From Candidatus Aadella gelida (GTDB lineage Bacteria; Omnitrophota; Gorgyraeia; Tantalellales; Tantalellaceae): 54,197 bases of DNA. The position numbers were made by a program, and so were the translations under genes. The stretch's first letter is position 1, and every line of letters starts with the position of its first letter. Positions 12,978 through 45,575 of the stretch are shown here, in pieces. The notes under the pieces were generated by a model. The model worked only from the letters and a program-made list of their open reading frames with translations, did no database searches and had not been told where the DNA came from. Location: positions 1 through 54,197 of the forward strand of contig JAVCDB010000008.1 in assembly GCA_030765205.1 (NCBI GenBank), in the 5' to 3' direction.

Positions 12978-13075
12978 GTGACTCGTGATTCGTGACTCGA
13001 AAACAATGAACAGTTGACCATAGTCAATAGTCTAATAACGTCCCTCTTCTTTCTCCCTTCTTCCTTCTGATCTCT
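12978..13075. repeat. 7-nt phased modular array
   Basis: 14 consecutive heptamers GTGACTC GTGATTC GTGACTC ... ATAGTCA ATAGTCT ... TCCCTCT TCTTTCT CCCTTCT TCCTTCT GATCTCT. Confidence 0.85.
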
Positions 13076-16864: not shown

Positions 16865-16885
16865 CTACAAACTATGAATTACCAA
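16865..16885. repeat. Short heptamer array
   Basis: CTACAAA CTATGAA TTACCAA, same unit order as 1174-1201. Confidence 0.55.
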
Positions 16886-24861: not shown

Positions 24862-24949
24862 GAGTTTGTCGTGTTTATTAGGTTTGTTGGGTTTGTTAGG
24901 TTATCTTGCCCGAGGTTCCGCGTCCTTCGTCCCTCATCTTTCGTCCTTC
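24862..24949. repeat. 9-nt array followed by 7-nt array
   Basis: GAGTTTGTC GTGTTTATT AGGTTTGTT GGGTTTGTT; then GTCCTTC GTCCCTC ATCTTTC GTCCTTC (24922-24949). Confidence 0.75.
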
Positions 24950-24953
24950 CAAC

Positions 24954-25559
24954 CTATCCCCTCGATATTTGGAATATAGCATTCAACGCCAAAAGGTTCG
25001 GCAGGATCTTAACCTCTTTCTTCTCGCATAAGAAAACACTTTTTTTTATGACTATGTTCTCTTTAGAACAAAACCTTTCAAAATCCTTTATGCTAAGAAA
25101 ATGGAGATTAGGAGTATCATACCAAGAATACGGCAAAGATGGTGTAAGAGGCACGTGCCCACCGAAAAAAAGCTGAACTCTTGCCTTTATATAACAAAAG
25201 TTAGGAAACCCTATGATAACCGTTTTCCCTATTCTCAAAGCTTCTTGTATTGCGTCTTTAGGGCGATGTACCTGCTGCATCGTCTGGTTGAATATAACAT
25301 AGTCAAAAAGTCCGTCGGGATACTCTTTGAGTCCCGTATCAATATCTCCTTGAGACACGCTAAGTCCTTTTTCAACGCACTGATAAATAGCCTGTTCGCT
25401 TATCTCGACACCGGTCCCGTCGGCTTCTTTGCTGGAAACAAGATATTCCAACAGTTCCCCGGCCCCACAACCCATATCAAGAACTTTGGAACCTCTTGAG
25501 ACCATTTCACCTATGATCCTATGATCGCATCTTAATTCTTCTTTTATTTTACTAGTCAT
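24954..25559 (-). CDS. metW: Methionine biosynthesis protein MetW
   Basis: [12 protein letters not shown]-binding motif, [16 protein letters not shown]; downstream of metX. Confidence 0.93.
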
Positions 25560-27675: not shown

Positions 27676-27711
27676 ACTATCTCCTTTTTTCATATAGGTT
27701 ACAGCATATTT

Positions 27712-27802
27712 GACCATTGACTATGGACAATTGACTATTGTCTTTTTAAAATTTTTCGAAGAAAAATTTTGGTCTATGGTCCATTGTCAATAGTCTATAG
27801 TC
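27712..27802. repeat. Inverted heptamer arrays around a central palindrome (long hairpin)
   Basis: GACCATT GACTATG GACAATT GACTATT - AAAATTTTTC GAA GAAAAATTTT - TATGGTC CATTGTC AATAGTC TATAGTC. Confidence 0.85.
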
Positions 27803-27821
27803 CAACATCTCTTCTGTCTCC

Positions 27822-31449: not shown

Positions 31450-31583
31450 GATCGATAAGGGCAAACTATTTGGAGCCGCGCATTGTGCTCCTCTTTGCTA
31501 TTAAGCAAAGCGAAAGAATAGGGCCGCAAAGTCTTGAGCCTACCTCCCGCCTATAAAGGGACATGGTTGTCGGACTGCCGAAA
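31450..31583 (+). ncRNA. c-di-GMP-I (GEMM-I) riboswitch, variant with insertion in P2
   Basis: TCG..AGGGCAAAC-TATT ... CGAAAG-AATAG-GGCCGCAAAG-TCTTGA-GCCTAC...ATGGTTG-TCGGAC-TGCCGA matches the GEMM-I consensus; G20, A47 and C92 equivalents present; lies in the 5' UTR. Confidence 0.8.
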
Positions 31584-31665: not shown

Positions 31666-32757
31666 ATGACTTTTACCATAAGACATAATACTACTAGAAT
31701 ACTGCGTTCCCTCATAATCACTATATTCCTTTTCAATTTTATTCTTACGCCCTCTTTCGTTTATCCGGAGGTAGCCTTTATTGCTCCGCAAAAAGGAATG
31801 TGCTATATAACCTGGGATCGGAACAGGTTCGCTTCGCAGTACTCCGATGAATCTTTAAAAAAACTTTCTACAATGGGAGTGGAATACATTTCAATCTGCC
31901 TCACCCATTATCAGGAAAAACATAATTCCACCAAGATAAAGTCTACCAGCAGAACTCCAAGCAGAAAAAGCCTTAAGCATGTCATAAAGAAAACGCATGA
32001 CCTTGGCATGAGCACGATGCTAAAGCCTCATATTGACCTCATAAGTAAAGGTGAGGGCACCTATTGGAGAGCCGATATTGGTTTTGCGTCCGAGCGAGAC
32101 TGGCAGAAATGGTTCGCAGAATACGAAAAATTTATCATTTCTTACGCGCGTATAGCTGAGAAAATGGATGTCGAGATATTTTGCATCGGAACCGAACTTT
32201 CTTTTGCTTCTCAAAGAACGTCAGATTGGAAAAACATCATTTCAGAGATAAGAAAAGTGTATTCAGGGAAGCTGGTATATGCAGCTAACTGGGACAACTT
32301 TAAGAATATAGAATTTTGGGACGAACTCGATTATGTCGGAATAGACGCTTATTTCCCTCTGACCTATACTACTAGACCTACTCTTGAAGACCTAAAGGGC
32401 GGCTGGACAAAGTGGAAGAACGAGATAGAAGCGTGGCACTCAAAAATAAACATACCTGTACTCTTTACAGAGATCGGATATGCCAGCACTGCAGGTGCTC
32501 CTTATTCTCCCTGGAAAGGAGGCTCTTTCGGAAACGCGGACATAAGCATCCAGGCATTATGTTACAAAGCATTTTTTGATACAATATGGAATGAACCATG
32601 GTTTGCCGGTGTCTACTGGTGGAAGTGGGATACAAACGTCCGCGCAGGCGGAGTTTACAATCGTCAGTTCACCCCTCAAAATAAACCCGCACAGAAAATA
32701 ATCGAAGCTAATTATAAAGGACTAACAGGAAACAGAGTTTATGCAATGGCTAAATAA
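31666..32757 (+). CDS. Glycoside hydrolase family 113-like protein (beta-mannanase-like), exported
   Basis: Signal/TM segment, MLKPHI, CIGTEL (acid/base), YAANWD, GIDAYFPL, FTEIGY (nucleophile), GVYWWKW. Confidence 0.85.
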   Translation: MTFTIRHNTTRILRSLIITIFLFNFILTPSFVYPEVAFIAPQKGMCYITWDRNRFASQYSDESLKKLSTMGVEYISICLTHYQEKHNSTKIKSTSRTPSRKSLKHVIKKTHDLGMSTMLKPHIDLISKGEGTYWRADIGFASERDWQKWFAEYEKFIISYARIAEKMDVEIFCIGTELSFASQRTSDWKNIISEIRKVYSGKLVYAANWDNFKNIEFWDELDYVGIDAYFPLTYTTRPTLEDLKGGWTKWKNEIEAWHSKINIPVLFTEIGYASTAGAPYSPWKGGSFGNADISIQALCYKAFFDTIWNEPWFAGVYWWKWDTNVRAGGVYNRQFTPQNKPAQKIIEANYKGLTGNRVYAMAK

Positions 32758-32758
32758 A

Positions 32759-32821
32759 TCCCTCTACTTTCTAGTTTCTACCCTCTGACTTTCGACCTTC
32801 AGACTTTCTGACCTTTAGACT
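32759..32821. repeat. Pyrimidine-rich heptamer-like array between convergent genes
   Basis: TCCCTCT ACTTTCT AGTTTCT ACCCTCT GACTTTC GACCTTC then GACTTT/GACCTT units. Confidence 0.7.
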
Positions 32822-34644: not shown

Positions 34645-35118
34645 TTATAATTTTTTAACCAAGCTAGCCGTACGCACGCCAAGCTCACGGCACTGCTTTT
34701 CTGCCCTAGCATCAGGCGCACCTATACTAACTGCCCCATAGTGATCTCCAGTATAACTACCCTGCACTACCATGCCGTGAATAAGCATCGCATTAAGTAT
34801 ATCGTTGATAGTCGTCTCGTTTCCCCCACCTATATTTGCGGCTGAAGAAAACGCCGCACCTACCTTACCTGAAAGTTTACCATGGAAACTTACTGAATCG
34901 TCAAAAAATTTCTTTATCTCAGCTGCCATTGAACCGTAATATGTAGGAGACCCAATTGCTATGGCATCATATTTGAGCGCCGCTTCGGGAAGGAAGTCCT
35001 TTATGTCGAACATCTCGACCTTTATATCCCCTTCCTTCTGCGCCCCTTCGGCTATTATTTCGGCCATCTTTTTGGTGTTACCTCCACGCGAATAATATAC
35101 AACAGCCATATTTTTCAT
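34645..35118 (-). CDS. Flavodoxin-like WrbA family NAD(P)H-dependent oxidoreductase
   Basis: YYSRGGNTKKMA, GSPTYYG, GKVGAAFSS..GGNETT, HGMVVQG. Confidence 0.88.
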   Translation of the reverse strand: MKNMAVVYYSRGGNTKKMAEIIAEGAQKEGDIKVEMFDIKDFLPEAALKYDAIAIGSPTYYGSMAAEIKKFFDDSVSFHGKLSGKVGAAFSSAANIGGGNETTINDILNAMLIHGMVVQGSYTGDHYGAVSIGAPDARAEKQCRELGVRTASLVKKL

Positions 35119-35134
35119 CTAACCCTCCTTTTTC

Positions 35135-35295
35135 GTGATTCGTGATTCGTGACTCGTGATTCGTGACTCGTCTCTCGTCCATCTTCTTTCTTCCTTCTAA
35201 CCTCTACCCTCTAACCTCTACCCTCTACCTTCTATCTTCTAACTTCTCGCATCGGTCATTCTCTGTCTATAGTCAATGGTCAATAGTCTATAGTC
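35135..35295. repeat. 23-unit 7-nt phased array (NNNNNTC)
   Basis: Unbroken register; 22 of 23 heptamers end in TC; blocks GTGAYTC x5, TAMCYTC-type x7, WATRGTC x4. Confidence 0.92.
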
Positions 35296-35300
35296 TTCTC

Positions 35301-36125
35301 TTACATTTCGTCCTCATCATTGACCAGGTTTATGTAAGATTCAAAACTTGTACCGCCCGCCACTACTCCCTTAAGATGAGCTATGCGTTCGGAAACATAT
35401 GGATGACTTTTGCCAAAAAAATATTTCATTCTAGGGGCTTTACTTCGAAGTTCGCGCAGTGTTTCCAAGGCCCCAATAGTTCCTCCTGGATCATAACCGG
35501 CTCTTTTCATGTATTTTACTGATAATTCGTCAGCCTGCTTCTCATCCTGCCTAGAATAAGCGGCCATAAGATGTCCTATAGCTGCCCCCAAAGACACATT
35601 CGTCTGTTCGACCTGCATCTGTGTCCCCAGCAGCATTAAAAGCGTCACACCTATATTTCCCTGCATCCTTTTAACGGAATGTTTAGCTTCTACATGCGAC
35701 ATCTCATGCGCCAGTACTCCGGCTATCTTTTTCTCATCCTTTAGTTCTTCCACAAGATCTGAAAAGACATAAATATAACCGCCCGGAACAGCAAAAGCAT
35801 TATAATTCTTTTCTTTTCTCTTTTCTCCCTCTTTACCTTTCAGCACCCTGAAACGATACACTATATCTCTGCGGTCTGTCCCGGATGCTACCTTCTCTCC
35901 TATTTTCTCGATCCTTTCCTGCATCAAGGGATCCACGGGCATGTCGTAATGTTTGCACACTTTCTCGTTAATAATGCGGCCCATACTCCTTTCTTTAGCA
36001 GCAGGGATGAAGATCATCTCCTCCTCATCAGTAGCAGGATTAACTGTCATCAAATTCCCCATCAAAAAGGGCACAGAAAAAAGTACCGCAATTAAAAGAT
36101 ATTTTATTTCTTGCCGCTTCCTCAT
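35301..36125 (-). CDS. M48 family metallopeptidase (BepA/YfgC-like)
   Basis: NAFAVPGGYIYV, LAHEMSHV, YSRQDEKQAD, SHP. Confidence 0.9.
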   Translation of the reverse strand: MRKRQEIKYLLIAVLFSVPFLMGNLMTVNPATDEEEMIFIPAAKERSMGRIINEKVCKHYDMPVDPLMQERIEKIGEKVASGTDRRDIVYRFRVLKGKEGEKRKEKNYNAFAVPGGYIYVFSDLVEELKDEKKIAGVLAHEMSHVEAKHSVKRMQGNIGVTLLMLLGTQMQVEQTNVSLGAAIGHLMAAYSRQDEKQADELSVKYMKRAGYDPGGTIGALETLRELRSKAPRMKYFFGKSHPYVSERIAHLKGVVAGGTSFESYINLVNDEDEM

Positions 36126-36797: not shown

Positions 36798-36800
36798 GGA

Positions 36801-37028
36801 GAAGCTAGAGGTTAGAAGGGTAGAGAGAAGAAGGACGAGGGACGTTATTAGACTATTGACCATTGACCATTGACCATAGACTGGGAATGCCCGATGTGAG
36901 GACAGTTTTAAAAGTTAAAAAGTTTTAAAGGGTTAAAGGTCAGGTTGGACTGATGGGGGGGAACAGTCCAAAAGGTAGAGATCGACTGCTGTGAAAATTG
37001 AAAGGTCAATAGTCAATCGTCTATGGTC
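36801..37028. repeat. Composite 7-nt and 9-nt phased arrays
   Basis: GA-started heptamers 36801-36899, 9-mers 36902-36937, hairpin TTGGACTG/CAGTCCAA, GTC-ended heptamers 37001-37028 complementary to 36851-36878. Confidence 0.85.
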
Positions 37029-37077
37029 AACAGATAACTGTTTACTACCATTCACTACATACCCTGTACCCTAACAT

Positions 37078-37118
37078 AAAAAAAGGGCGTCACATTTTAT
37101 TGTGACGCCCTTTTTTTT
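37078..37118. terminator. Bidirectional intrinsic terminator
   Basis: A7-GGGCGTCACA-TTTTAT-TGTGACGCCC-T8 between convergent genes. Confidence 0.92.
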
Positions 37119-37133
37119 ATGAAGTTTCAATAA

Positions 37134-38693: not shown

Positions 38694-38777
38694 GAAGTCA
38701 GAAGCTAGAGGCTGGAGGCTGGAAGGTAGAGGTCAGAGGTTAGATGTCAGTCGGTAGTAGTTAGTTGAGAGGTGAGA
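38694..38777. repeat. 7-nt phased array (GANNNNN)
   Basis: GAAGTCA GAAGCTA GAGGCTG GAGGCTG GAAGGTA GAGGTCA GAGGTTA GATGTCA plus 4 more G-started units in register. Confidence 0.85.
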
Positions 38778-40492: not shown

Positions 40493-40584
40493 GGTGACCT
40501 GGTAACTGGTGACTACCCTTCGTCCCTCATCCTTCGTCTTTCTTCCCTCTATCTTCTACCTTCTTCCCTCTAATCTCTACCCTC
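40493..40584. repeat. 7-nt phased array
   Basis: GGTRACT units then 10 consecutive TC-ended heptamers (40515-40584). Confidence 0.85.
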
Positions 40585-41696
40585 TATCCCTCAAACTCCT
40601 CCCCCATCCGTATCCTCTCAGATATAGGAGGATGATCATAGAGAAACACTTTTCTGAGTTTTGAAGGATCTGTATCGGCAAGATTCATCTCTGCGAGTTT
40701 TTTCATCACAGAAACAAAGTTTTCACTATTATCGATCGCTTTTAGAGCAAACATATCTGCTTCTCGTTCAAGTATGCGCGAAAAAAGATTTTTCAGTGGC
40801 AATAGGATTATCCCCATTAGGAACATAATCCCGAAAAAATAAGGGAATATAATAGGATCATCCGCACCTGCTGCTCCGCTTTCTGTAACTATCCTGTTTA
40901 TCATGAGGTATGCCGCGTAAAAAACAAGAAAAGTCGATATCCCTGAGAACAAAAGGAGTTTATGTATATGCCGATATTTCAGGTGCCCGAACTCATGTGC
41001 TACAACAGCTTCTATCTCTTCATTTGTAAATTTTTCTTTCAGCGTATCAGAAATGATAACTTTACGTGTTTTTCCGAGCCCCACCAGAGCAGCATTGGCC
41101 TTACGTGTTTTCCGGCTGAGGTCGATAAGGCTGATGTCTTCGATATCTACACCCTCTCTATTAGATAGCTTAATTATCTTTTCCTTGAGAGATTCATCTT
41201 GCAAGGGTAAGTATTTATAGAACAGCGGTATGATAAATACCGGAAGAATGCGCGTTAATCCTACTGAGACCATTATCCAGGCTATTGCGCAAAACAGCCA
41301 CCATAATTGCTCAAAATTACGCAAAATAAAATATAGTCCCGCTATACACGCAAATGTCAGAAGAGACGATAATATTGTTGATTTTACTTCATCCTTTATC
41401 CAGTCAGAAAGAGACTGACGTGAAAGATCATAGGCATGTTCGATATAAAACGAACCGATCATTCTGAGAGGTAATTGAACCAGATAAAGATATGTGAAAA
41501 ACGCGGCGGCAAAAACAAGACGTACAGCGTAATAATTACTATACGCCTTTCCTGTAAAAGATGCTAAAGGGCCTGCGAACTGTATCTCGAAAACTATAAG
41601 GGCGCAGGTTACCAAGAGAAGGTTAACGAGAAATATTCTGCTTTTTACAAGTGCATATTTTTTTCTTCGTTTTGGGTCCCCTTCTCCTTCGTTCAT
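40584..41696 (-). CDS. M48 family Ste24-like membrane metalloprotease
   Basis: Multiple TMs, ANAALVGLGKTRKV, AHEFGH, EREAD, HPPISERI. Confidence 0.9.
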   Translation of the reverse strand: MNEGEGDPKRRKKYALVKSRIFLVNLLLVTCALIVFEIQFAGPLASFTGKAYSNYYAVRLVFAAAFFTYLYLVQLPLRMIGSFYIEHAYDLSRQSLSDWIKDEVKSTILSSLLTFACIAGLYFILRNFEQLWWLFCAIAWIMVSVGLTRILPVFIIPLFYKYLPLQDESLKEKIIKLSNREGVDIEDISLIDLSRKTRKANAALVGLGKTRKVIISDTLKEKFTNEEIEAVVAHEFGHLKYRHIHKLLLFSGISTFLVFYAAYLMINRIVTESGAAGADDPIIFPYFFGIMFLMGIILLPLKNLFSRILEREADMFALKAIDNSENFVSVMKKLAEMNLADTDPSKLRKVFLYDHPPISERIRMGEEFEG

Positions 41697-45547: not shown

Positions 45548-45575
45548 AGTAGACGGGGTTTAAACCCCGTCTACT
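45548..45575. repeat. GTAG-type REP, perfect 28-bp palindrome
   Basis: AGTAGACGGGGTTT|AAACCCCGTCTACT. Confidence 0.8.

Follow-up and report, generated by a model that had tools for sequence, protein, structure and literature searches.

The 54,197 nt contig JAVCDB010000008.1 of Candidatus Aadella gelida, analysed here over its whole length and called the window (contig C61 of the genome), contains a run of 25 heptamers in a single register (35121-35295) in the 182 nt spacer between two co-oriented genes. We conclude that this tract is an extreme example of a heptanucleotide repeat array of the short tandemly repeated repetitive (STRR) type, a class that Mazel et al. are said to have described in cyanobacteria in 1990. 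It is made up of head-to-tail 7 nt units, is non-coding, and belongs to a set of arrays found at many loci and in several unit families. The initial annotation had counted 23 heptamers in 7 nt steps from 35135 with no indel, 22 of them ending in TC. This count was confirmed, the single exception being GGTCATT at 35254, and two further in-register units, at 35121 and 35128, bring the TC-ended total to 24/25. As both flanking genes are on the minus strand, the strand on which the units are led by GA is the sense strand.

Column 6 of the aligned units is T in 25/25 and column 7 is C in 24/25. In none of the other five columns does the major base exceed 48% (range 36-48%). The 25 units comprise 19 distinct sequences, and adjacent units are identical at a mean of 4.96/7 positions. 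Of all TC dinucleotides in the spacer, 24/36 share a single phase. Shuffling that preserved dinucleotides (5000 replicates) put a mean of 8.1 and a maximum of 15 into the best phase, and 24 was never reached. Tandem Repeats Finder (TRF) placed period-7 arrays, all free of indels (0%), at 35132-35171, 35196-35247 and 35265-35296. The tract is also the longest of the approximately 350 period-7 arrays in the genome, and the longest phased run when one miss is allowed. An origin by chance, or as an artefact of how the units were parsed, could appeal to the break in register in the spacer at 12978 (see below) and to the loss of register across interruptions. The shuffles and the absence of indels refute it for the focal tract, and we regard it as practically negligible.

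The tract, its modules and the flanking genes are as follows, in the sense direction.

35301..36125, minus strand: upstream gene, encoding an M48 peptidase, with its TAA stop codon at 35301-35303.
35121..35295, minus strand: full extent of the in-register tract, with 24 of its 25 heptamers led by GA on the sense strand.
35268..35295, minus strand: module 1, four GACYATW units, the first module after the stop codon.
35247..35267, minus strand: conserved junction GACAGAG, then a 14 nt linker that includes the one out-of-register unit.
35170..35246, minus strand: module 2, 11 purine-rich GA-led units.
35135..35169, minus strand: module 3, five GARTCAC units (GTGAYTC on the plus strand), defined from TRF and from reading of the units.
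35119..35134, minus strand: the last two in-register units, with a Shine-Dalgarno-like GGAGGG ahead of the ATG (35116-35118) of the flavodoxin-like gene.
34645..35118, minus strand: downstream gene, encoding a flavodoxin or FMN-reductase-like protein.

The gene pair around the tract most likely forms a two-gene operon. A promoter-like site (a consensus match only) is present upstream of the M48 gene, and consensus-match scans found neither a promoter-like nor a terminator-like site inside the focal spacer. Read as sense RNA, the spacer would be purine-rich and C-poor (73 A, 59 G, 29 U and 21 C). This RNA is not predicted to fold more stably than shuffled sequence (z = +1.07, with 173/200 shuffles folding as well or better), and the opposite strand gave +1.03. 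A reading of the tract as a hairpin or terminator was ruled out by these z-scores together with the terminator scan. When the M48 protein was compared with the ESM Atlas, the nearest structural cluster consisted mostly of Candidatus Omnitrophota. Across the whole window, the sole Rfam match at gathering thresholds was a cyclic di-GMP-I (c-di-GMP-I) riboswitch located away from the tract, at 31450-31582 on the plus strand (46.7 bits, gathering threshold 35), upstream of the open reading frame (ORF) at 31666-32757.

Heptamer arrays and their constrained core

The genome (1.59 Mb in 113 contigs, 40.5% G+C, 92% complete) carries the 7 nt period in its intergenic DNA at large. Autocorrelation at lag 7, which had been proposed as a check in the initial annotation, gave an intergenic identity of 0.300 compared with approximately 0.27 at the lags on either side, and the signal recurs at lags 14 and 21. 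In coding DNA, lag identity reflected the period of 3 only. TRF reported 349 rows with period 7 (9420 nt), against 39 with period 6 and 106 with period 8. Of the period-7 rows, 270/349 lie mostly outside crude ORFs, and 104 canonical units are represented among them, the commonest being GACTATT (41 arrays), AGGTTTT (22) and CACTGTT (15). The GACYATW family alone has 85 occurrences of at least three units.

When dinucleotides were compared, the lag-7 excess was 2.3-fold for AC/GT, 2.1-fold for CG and 1.9-fold for TC/GA, and the excess persisted at lags 28-35 for TC/GA, CG and CC. Strict runs of at least five units occur at similar frequency in each class (GA/TC 129, AC/GT 130, AG/CT 105). Among strict runs of at least eight units there are 16 for GA/TC, seven for AC/GT and five for AG/CT, and among runs with one miss allowed the counts are 54, 37 and 39, respectively, of which 28, 15 and 11 span at least two unit families. 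Variability by column was determined in 198 imperfect TRF arrays, with the register chosen without reference to GA. Columns with a GA/TC consensus vary at 8.5%, and the remaining five columns within those arrays at 13.9%. The resulting ratio of 0.61 is the lowest of any dinucleotide class and was reached in 0/5000 random picks of adjacent columns. As AC/GT follows closely at 0.64, the conserved core is really GAC, and we conclude that the GA(C)/(G)TC core of the arrays is under constraint.

A neutral process of whole-unit duplication or loss plus substitution was simulated at five rates, with 3000 runs each. A column pair at least 96% invariant, with the other columns as diverse as those observed, arose in 0/15000 runs. 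Phase was kept throughout, because whole-unit slippage with substitution retains it by construction and needs no special mechanism to do so. It is therefore the invariant pair that requires an explanation, and the phase does not. The initial annotation had argued that slippage could not hold phase across unit families, and that a neutral simulation reproducing it would count against selection. The first point fails, the simulation answers the second for phase and not for the dinucleotide, and of the proposal that phase plus dinucleotide is selected or imposed, it is the constraint on the dinucleotide that is supported.

The same results bear on the explanation that involves no dedicated factor at all, in which slippage with a preference for 7 nt generates neutral or selfish arrays. 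In its support, phase retention is automatic, and the Introduction of PMC4679880 credits Mrazek et al. 2007 with the view that heptamers originate by polymerase slippage. The simulation runs, none of which gave an invariant dinucleotide, and the specifically lower variability of the GA/TC columns argue against it. Taking these together with the points on orientation, history and distribution considered below, we regard it as a serious contender, albeit an unlikely one.

Register does not extend to whole spacers. Successive strict GA runs within one spacer were in phase in 11/42 cases, where six were expected, and were shifted by +3 in 12/42. Adjacent TRF arrays of different families aligned best at shift 0 in 13.3/60 cases compared with 8.6 expected. 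These figures rule out a strict spacer-wide register. We conclude that register is kept inside contiguous tracks and is not a rule for entire spacers, and the suggestion that a heptamer-adding machine is the source of the register was not supported.

Composite modules and their placement around genes

On the TC strand, the top GA/TC runs share a common order, namely a junction, three to five WATRGTC units, a linker and pyrimidine units. Read on the coding strand, the composite passes from the stop codon through purine-rich GA-led units, a 7 nt linker and three to five GACYATW units to a junction starting GACAGAG. Beyond the junction often come a variable insert, then a WATRGTC array in inverted orientation, and then CAC-type units ahead of the next start codon. 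The focal tract has this grammar entered at GACYATW, and the GACAGAG junction also follows GACYATW arrays in other spacers. The modules keep this order in dozens of further spacers, where they start at a stop codon or within a few bases past it and are led by GA on the coding strand. An all-against-all BLAST comparison returned 1417 high-scoring segment pairs between different spacers. Thus the unit families, which had been considered unrelated in the initial annotation, are instead recurrent modules copied in fixed order from spacer to spacer. Gaps between paralogous spacers fall steadily in number from 1 nt (517) to 6 nt (28) and rise at 7 nt (48) before falling again at 8 nt (15). The bump at 7 nt is a further point in favour of slippage, and also of the whole-unit change in the explanation favoured below.

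Nine other spacers of the window had been listed as containing similar phased arrays. Seven of these are clear. One, at 32758-32785, has a weak track of four units, and the spacer at 16865 has no phased GA/TC track (a maximum of one in any phase). The features in the clear spacers are as follows.

1111-1147: GA/TC-phased track, 5/6 units.
13024..13074, minus strand: GA/TC-phased track in a composite copy, 7/8 units.
24927-24963: GA/TC-phased track, 5/6 units.
27773-27809: GA/TC-phased track, 6/6 units.
27710..27809, no strand assigned: inverted pair of GACYATW and WATRGTC arrays, a hairpin-type element.
36823..36894, plus strand: composite copy after a plus-strand gene, with purine-rich units, 7 nt linker and GACYATW, 9/11 units.
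38694..38744, plus strand: GA-led track, 8/8 units, that breaks the strand rule by lying antisense to each of its two neighbouring genes.
40520..40598, minus strand: purine-rich GA-led track, 11/12 units.

The register is not kept in the spacer at 12978, where the GTGAYTC units (12978-12999) stand one base (+1) out of phase with the later units of that spacer. The spacer with the plus-strand composite also contains an inverted WATRGTC arm at 37005-37030. This convergent spacer (36798-37133) ends in a canonical bidirectional intrinsic terminator at 37085-37110, with a G+C-rich stem flanked by an A-run and a T-run, and contains heptamer arrays as well; the arrays are therefore no substitute for a terminator there.

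Several other short elements are associated with the arrays or dispersed in the genome. In three spacers (C6:8912-9247, C48:28956-29157 and C31:6885-7118), the GACYATW arm is separated from the inverted WATRGTC arm by a conserved non-coding insert of approximately 90 nt, which could represent a small RNA or what is left of a cassette gene since lost. G+C-rich hairpin modules are located amid heptamer arrays in spacers on contigs C16, C22, C113, C13, C11 and C62. These modules, one of which carries the core CCTGCCTGCCGGCAGG present in eight spacers, make up a third short dispersed repeat family. A palindromic family resembling repetitive extragenic palindromic (REP) hairpins has 58 cores in the genome and occurs in 46/623 spacers, with one copy in the window at 45555-45568. 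Hairpins of this family are found on both sides of a gene for a Y1 transposase resembling the REP-associated tyrosine transposases (RAYT) at C37:33383-33948, which has one in-frame TAG. Y1-transposase matches in the genome number four. A reverse-transcriptase (RVT_1) frame on the short contig C106 (429-1086) is broken by two TGA codons and one TAA.

Orientation was scored in spacers between co-directional genes. GA-phased tracks of at least six units have GA on the sense strand in 29 cases and on the antisense strand in four, so the sense-strand rule proposed from the window holds genome-wide, and the track at 38694, recorded as its exception, is indeed one. Purine-led arrays are more strongly biased (sense 29:1) and begin a median of 7 nt past the upstream stop codon. 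For CAC-type arrays (sense 16:3), the median distance to the start codon downstream is 19 nt. A weaker bias for GACYATW arrays (sense 44:24) is expected because GACYATW also serves as inverted arms. Composition follows position, with G exceeding C in 65 and C exceeding G in 22 of the arrays that start within 40 nt after a stop codon, and C exceeding G in 40 and G exceeding C in 13 of those that end within 40 nt before a start codon. Genes with at least four GA-phased units within 20 nt downstream end in TAG in 43/66 cases, compared with 26% of all genes. The TAG is in register with the GA track in 20 of these 43, and in 11 cases the GA track begins one unit inside the coding sequence. Arrays may thus have trimmed or replaced the original gene ends.

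Slippage without a dedicated factor would have to obtain this orientation from purifying selection on mRNA. For instance, C-rich, G-poor sense tracts would recruit Rho and cause polarity, leaving the purine-rich orientation to survive. Rho is encoded in the genome, and the sense strand of the focal spacer, with 21 C and 59 G, has the expected composition. However, the C-over-G arrays just before start codons (40 vs 13) are the opposite of the simple prediction of a Rho filter.

Rho also figures in a proposal that the arrays act on the other strand. If it were transcribed, the strand with TC every 7 nt would be a Rho loading site that blocks antisense entry into the upstream gene. Rho has a preferred spacing of YC sites, and on the antisense side the spacer offers 59 C, 21 G and a YC dinucleotide every 7 nt. 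However, no antisense promoter-like site was found downstream in the consensus scan, and both the other unit families and the link to four-helix-bundle genes described below are left unexplained. We consider such an insulator highly improbable.

A track for the binding of a periodic single-strand RNA-binding factor, other than the four-helix-bundle protein considered below, would act on the sense RNA. Candidates would be a TRAP- or HutP-like ring on (U/G)AG every 7 nt, S1 or cold-shock proteins. In a variant, the anti-Shine-Dalgarno end of 16S rRNA would read GAGG or AGGA every 7 nt and hold or pass on terminating ribosomes. Read one base earlier, module 2 gives seven consecutive units of UAG plus 4 nt in the sense RNA. 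Genome-wide there are 107 TAG-plus-4 arrays of at least three units (sense 63:21), lying a median of 10 nt after the stop codon. Folding indicates that the focal RNA is unstructured, the genome has two cold-shock genes, and a polynucleotide phosphorylase (PNPase) with S1 and KH domains is encoded in the window. S1, Csp and CsrA have been put forward as candidates for other heptamer repeats (PMC4679880). In the 92%-complete genome there was no match to HutP or TRAP at E<=1, and none to HutP, TRAP, Hfq or CsrA at E<=1 or E<=0.001, and the analogy to a TRAP-like ring made in the initial annotation is accordingly not borne out. The 7 nt period is shared by all 104 unit families, many of them lacking GA or UAG, and the tract is not in an attenuator-bearing leader. 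A binding track of this type is therefore a quite unlikely explanation.

History, distribution and the link to four-helix-bundle genes

Thirteen loci were compared, that of the window and 12 from relatives belonging to the same family. In 11/12 relatives the flavodoxin-like gene comes after the M48 gene. In both genomes of the same genus the spacer is approximately 10-60 nt long and heptamer-free, and in two other genera different heptamers are found at the same place. The nearest relatives share only 66% protein identity. As the same-genus spacers are short and lack heptamers, we conclude that the 182 nt tract was gained in this lineage, by the joining of four recurrent modules in one register. 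The array is thus dispensable for the gene pair, which is a point for slippage without a dedicated factor. Metagenome contigs (four DNA runs; three other samples) contain the spacer, or the part of it that they cover, with no gaps. One spans the whole spacer without any difference, a second, 390 nt long and corresponding to 34907-35296, has three substitutions and no gap, and a third, corresponding to 35176-35498, has no difference. Other short matches were to paralogous modules.

In a sample of 151 genomes from the same phylum, 97/151 contained one or more period-7 runs of six GA. This genome has 122 overlapping hits, and five others have more than 100. AG at period 7, used as a control, was commoner than GA in 85 genomes and rarer in 34. 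GA is therefore ruled out as a universal anchor, and the anchor dinucleotide is lineage-specific. Runs of nine GA are common in five rich genomes, and in two of these they lie far above the AG control (50 vs 1 and 65 vs 0). In one genome there are tracks in which almost every unit differs from its neighbour with GA fixed. Beyond the phylum, GACYATW (three units plus GAC) was found at more than 123 public loci, and those listed include Calothrix, Nostoc, Fischerella, Tolypothrix, Anabaena, many Bacteroidota, Ignavibacteria, Acidobacteriota and others. In these loci in-phase GA falls to background within approximately three units of the array, so long multi-family tracks are atypical in other phyla. 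The recurrence of one unit family in many phyla is a point against slippage.

The initial annotation had stated that similar arrays often flank genes of the four-helix-bundle family that includes the 23S rRNA intervening-sequence proteins (IVP; PF05635), and had noted that none is present in the window. Both statements hold. PF05635 is homologous to Avd of diversity-generating retroelements (DGR), according to a passage in PMC10053308. Across the 151 genomes, the number of PF05635 matches and the number of heptamer-phased hits correlate with a Spearman coefficient of 0.65, a figure that ignores kinship. Four subgroups gave 0.55-0.74. Heptamer hits correlate with Y1-transposase matches at 0.20 and with genome size at 0.03, and the partial correlation with IVP matches when both are controlled for is 0.65. 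An IVP match is present in 64/72 genomes with at least 10 heptamer hits, compared with 34/79 with fewer. Slippage without a dedicated factor would require the correlation to reflect a shared tolerance for insertions, and its specificity speaks against that.

The association is also seen at individual genes. An array was scored when a 130 nt flank of an IVP gene had at least 16/21 matches at lag 7, and arms were scored as complementary with at least 17/21. In 19 Omnitrophota loci from 19 other genomes (a twentieth, at a contig end and with no ORF, was dropped), lag-7 flank arrays were found in 14/19 and lag-6 or lag-8 arrays in none. In other phyla, 29 loci were taken from four cyanobacteria, four Bacteroidota and one acidobacterium, genomes chosen because they contain heptamers, with one duplicate dropped. 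Lag-7 flank arrays were present in 22/29, compared with 0/57 control segments 570-700 nt away, and the arms are complementary in 17/29, compared with 0/28 control pairs. Each of these nine genomes has 4-10 IVP matches, again with the qualification that they were chosen for heptamers. Overall, IVP genes are located between heptamer arms at 36/48 loci in four phyla.

The only intact IVP gene of the genome itself (TIGR02436, 115.8 bits; the DGR Avd model gave only 26 bits) is inside an operon at C16:5804-6169, with AGGTTTT units before it and complementary AACCT-type units after it. The only other IVP match is a fragment on contig C13, and the window contig has none. No match to PDDEXK_3 (GxxExxY) was found in this genome. 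Among solved structures, the nearest to the IVP protein is PDB 2GSC, an uncharacterised protein from Xanthomonas whose deposited entry has five chains. In a relative from the same family, an IVP gene (contig C31 of that genome) is followed by nine identical GACTAAC units that extend up to the next ATG, and the gene that follows has no Shine-Dalgarno-like sequence.

Insertion footprints have also to be considered. The units would be 7 bp target duplications of a mobile element with a preference for GA(C), or the products of a templated heptamer-adding enzyme. A period of exactly 7 with a conserved short core is what such an element would leave, arrays would offer ever more targets, fitting their clustering in composites, and the genome has the four Y1-transposase matches and the one broken reverse-transcriptase locus. 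However, no element with flanking 7 bp direct duplications was seen, and the only repeat tied to a transposase here is the palindromic REP-like hairpin. Y1 counts correlate only weakly with heptamers (0.20), and neighbouring units usually differ, unlike fresh duplications. This origin is accordingly very unlikely.

The explanation that we favour as a whole, and to which we give roughly even confidence, is an STRR-type array with whole-unit inheritance, an RNA-level orientation filter and a link to IVP cassettes. Arrays would gain and lose whole 7 nt units, and units would drift by substitution, so that register would be inherited and need no separate enforcement. Composites would be copied from spacer to spacer, and constraint would ensure that, on the transcribed strand, units keep a GA(C) core in leading position. 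A filter acting on RNA would set orientation and position, retaining G/A-rich, C-poor arrays after stop codons and C/A-rich, G-poor arrays before start codons. The repeat system would stem from, or be serviced by, the IVP cassette family, and the focal tract would be a gene-less, one-armed descendant of it.

For a factor that reads or propagates the 7 nt register, the IVP protein is the strongest candidate at hand, a role that we regard as possible, with the balance against it. More specifically, and still more tentatively, heptamer repeats (STRR and their relatives) may be the cis-acting partner of the Avd-like IVP, with the protein forming an oligomeric ring that reads single-stranded nucleic acid in a 7 nt register via a short core, here GA(C), and promotes the spread or retention of arrays. 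Were this true, tracts such as this one would be parts of a selfish protein-plus-repeat system found across more than 10 phyla, and both the period of 7 and the role of the IVP family would be explained.

A number of observations weigh against the favoured explanation. Between paralogous spacers, 1 nt gaps (517) far outnumber 7 nt gaps (48), and many of them are outside arrays. With no gaps in the metagenome contigs, unit turnover is not fast at the scale of these samples, with the proviso that contigs hide rare variants. Eight of the 72 heptamer-rich genomes have no IVP match, 34 IVP-positive genomes are heptamer-poor, and kinship may contribute to the correlation. In this genome, one intact IVP gene and one fragment stand against approximately 350 arrays in 104 unit families, and the AGGTTTT arms of the intact gene lack GA. 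With a single IVP gene and GA-free arms, reading of all families by one protein via GA is not straightforward. The focal spacer has neither a complementary (inverted) heptamer arm nor an IVP ORF, and it is from shared modules only that we infer its possible descent from an IVP cassette.

Should there be no dedicated factor, the tract would be a natural example of operon spacers tolerating long insertions in one orientation. Bacterial heptanucleotide repeats have been on record for decades, yet neither a function nor a reason for the number seven is agreed on, and the function of the widespread IVP four-helix-bundle family is likewise without explanation. These two old puzzles become one question, whether the IVP protein binds or propagates heptamer arrays.

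Comparison with known systems

HutP recognises three UAG triplets four nucleotides apart, and the spacing of TRAP sites is shorter than 7 nt. The focal tract resembles the sites of both in having regularly spaced (U/G)AG triplets on single-stranded RNA. It differs in that neither protein was found in the genome, in its 7 nt spacing throughout, and in its position after a stop codon rather than in a leader with a terminator and anti-terminator. REP sequences and REPINs, which are associated with RAYT (Y1) transposases, are likewise dispersed intergenic repeats, and the genome has a separate palindromic family flanking a Y1 gene. However, the focal tract is not palindromic and does not contain that motif, and Y1 counts correlate weakly with heptamers.

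With the STRR repeats of cyanobacteria, the arrays share tandem 7 nt intergenic units, many families per genome and a patchy distribution among lineages, and GACYATW itself is present in Calothrix, Nostoc, Fischerella, Tolypothrix and Anabaena records. The differences are that the arrays here form long multi-family composites with one register and a fixed module order, that their placement is linked to stop codons and the coding strand, and that the host is of the Omnitrophota type. We found no literature pairing Omnitrophota with heptamer or tandem repeats, and none joining heptamer repeats with the IVP family; most subscription journals lay outside the scope of both searches, as did, for the second, curated database family notes, which may mention the link.

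A close published parallel is the TAACTGA direct repeats in marine Beggiatoaceae, cyanobacteria and Bacteroidetes (MacGregor 2015, PMC4679880). These repeats are intergenic, in forward orientation and near start codons that often have no canonical ribosome-binding site. They are mixed with other heptamers, related strains differ in 7 nt indel steps, close relatives have shorter repeat-free spacers, and a binding protein was proposed (PMC4679880). The CAC-type arrays described here, with their median distance of 19 nt to the start codon, resemble them, and one Fischerella IVP gene is flanked by a TAACTGA unit and its complement. The focal tract differs in starting at the upstream stop codon and in being dominated by purine-rich GA-led units, and the four-helix-bundle family, linked to heptamers here, is not mentioned in the consulted passages of that account (PMC4679880).

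The multi-module in-register composites, the stop, start and strand rules, the constrained GA(C) core and the quantitative IVP link are new relative to the literature consulted. Intervening sequences of 23S rRNA that bear ORFs were reportedly described by Ralph and McClelland in 1993. In IVP cassettes, a small four-helix-bundle gene is enclosed by complementary arms made of heptamer runs and co-varies with heptamer arrays at the level of the genome. The focal spacer, with no gene, no complementary arm and no predicted fold, differs from such a cassette, and what it shares with the cassettes is their unit families and their register.

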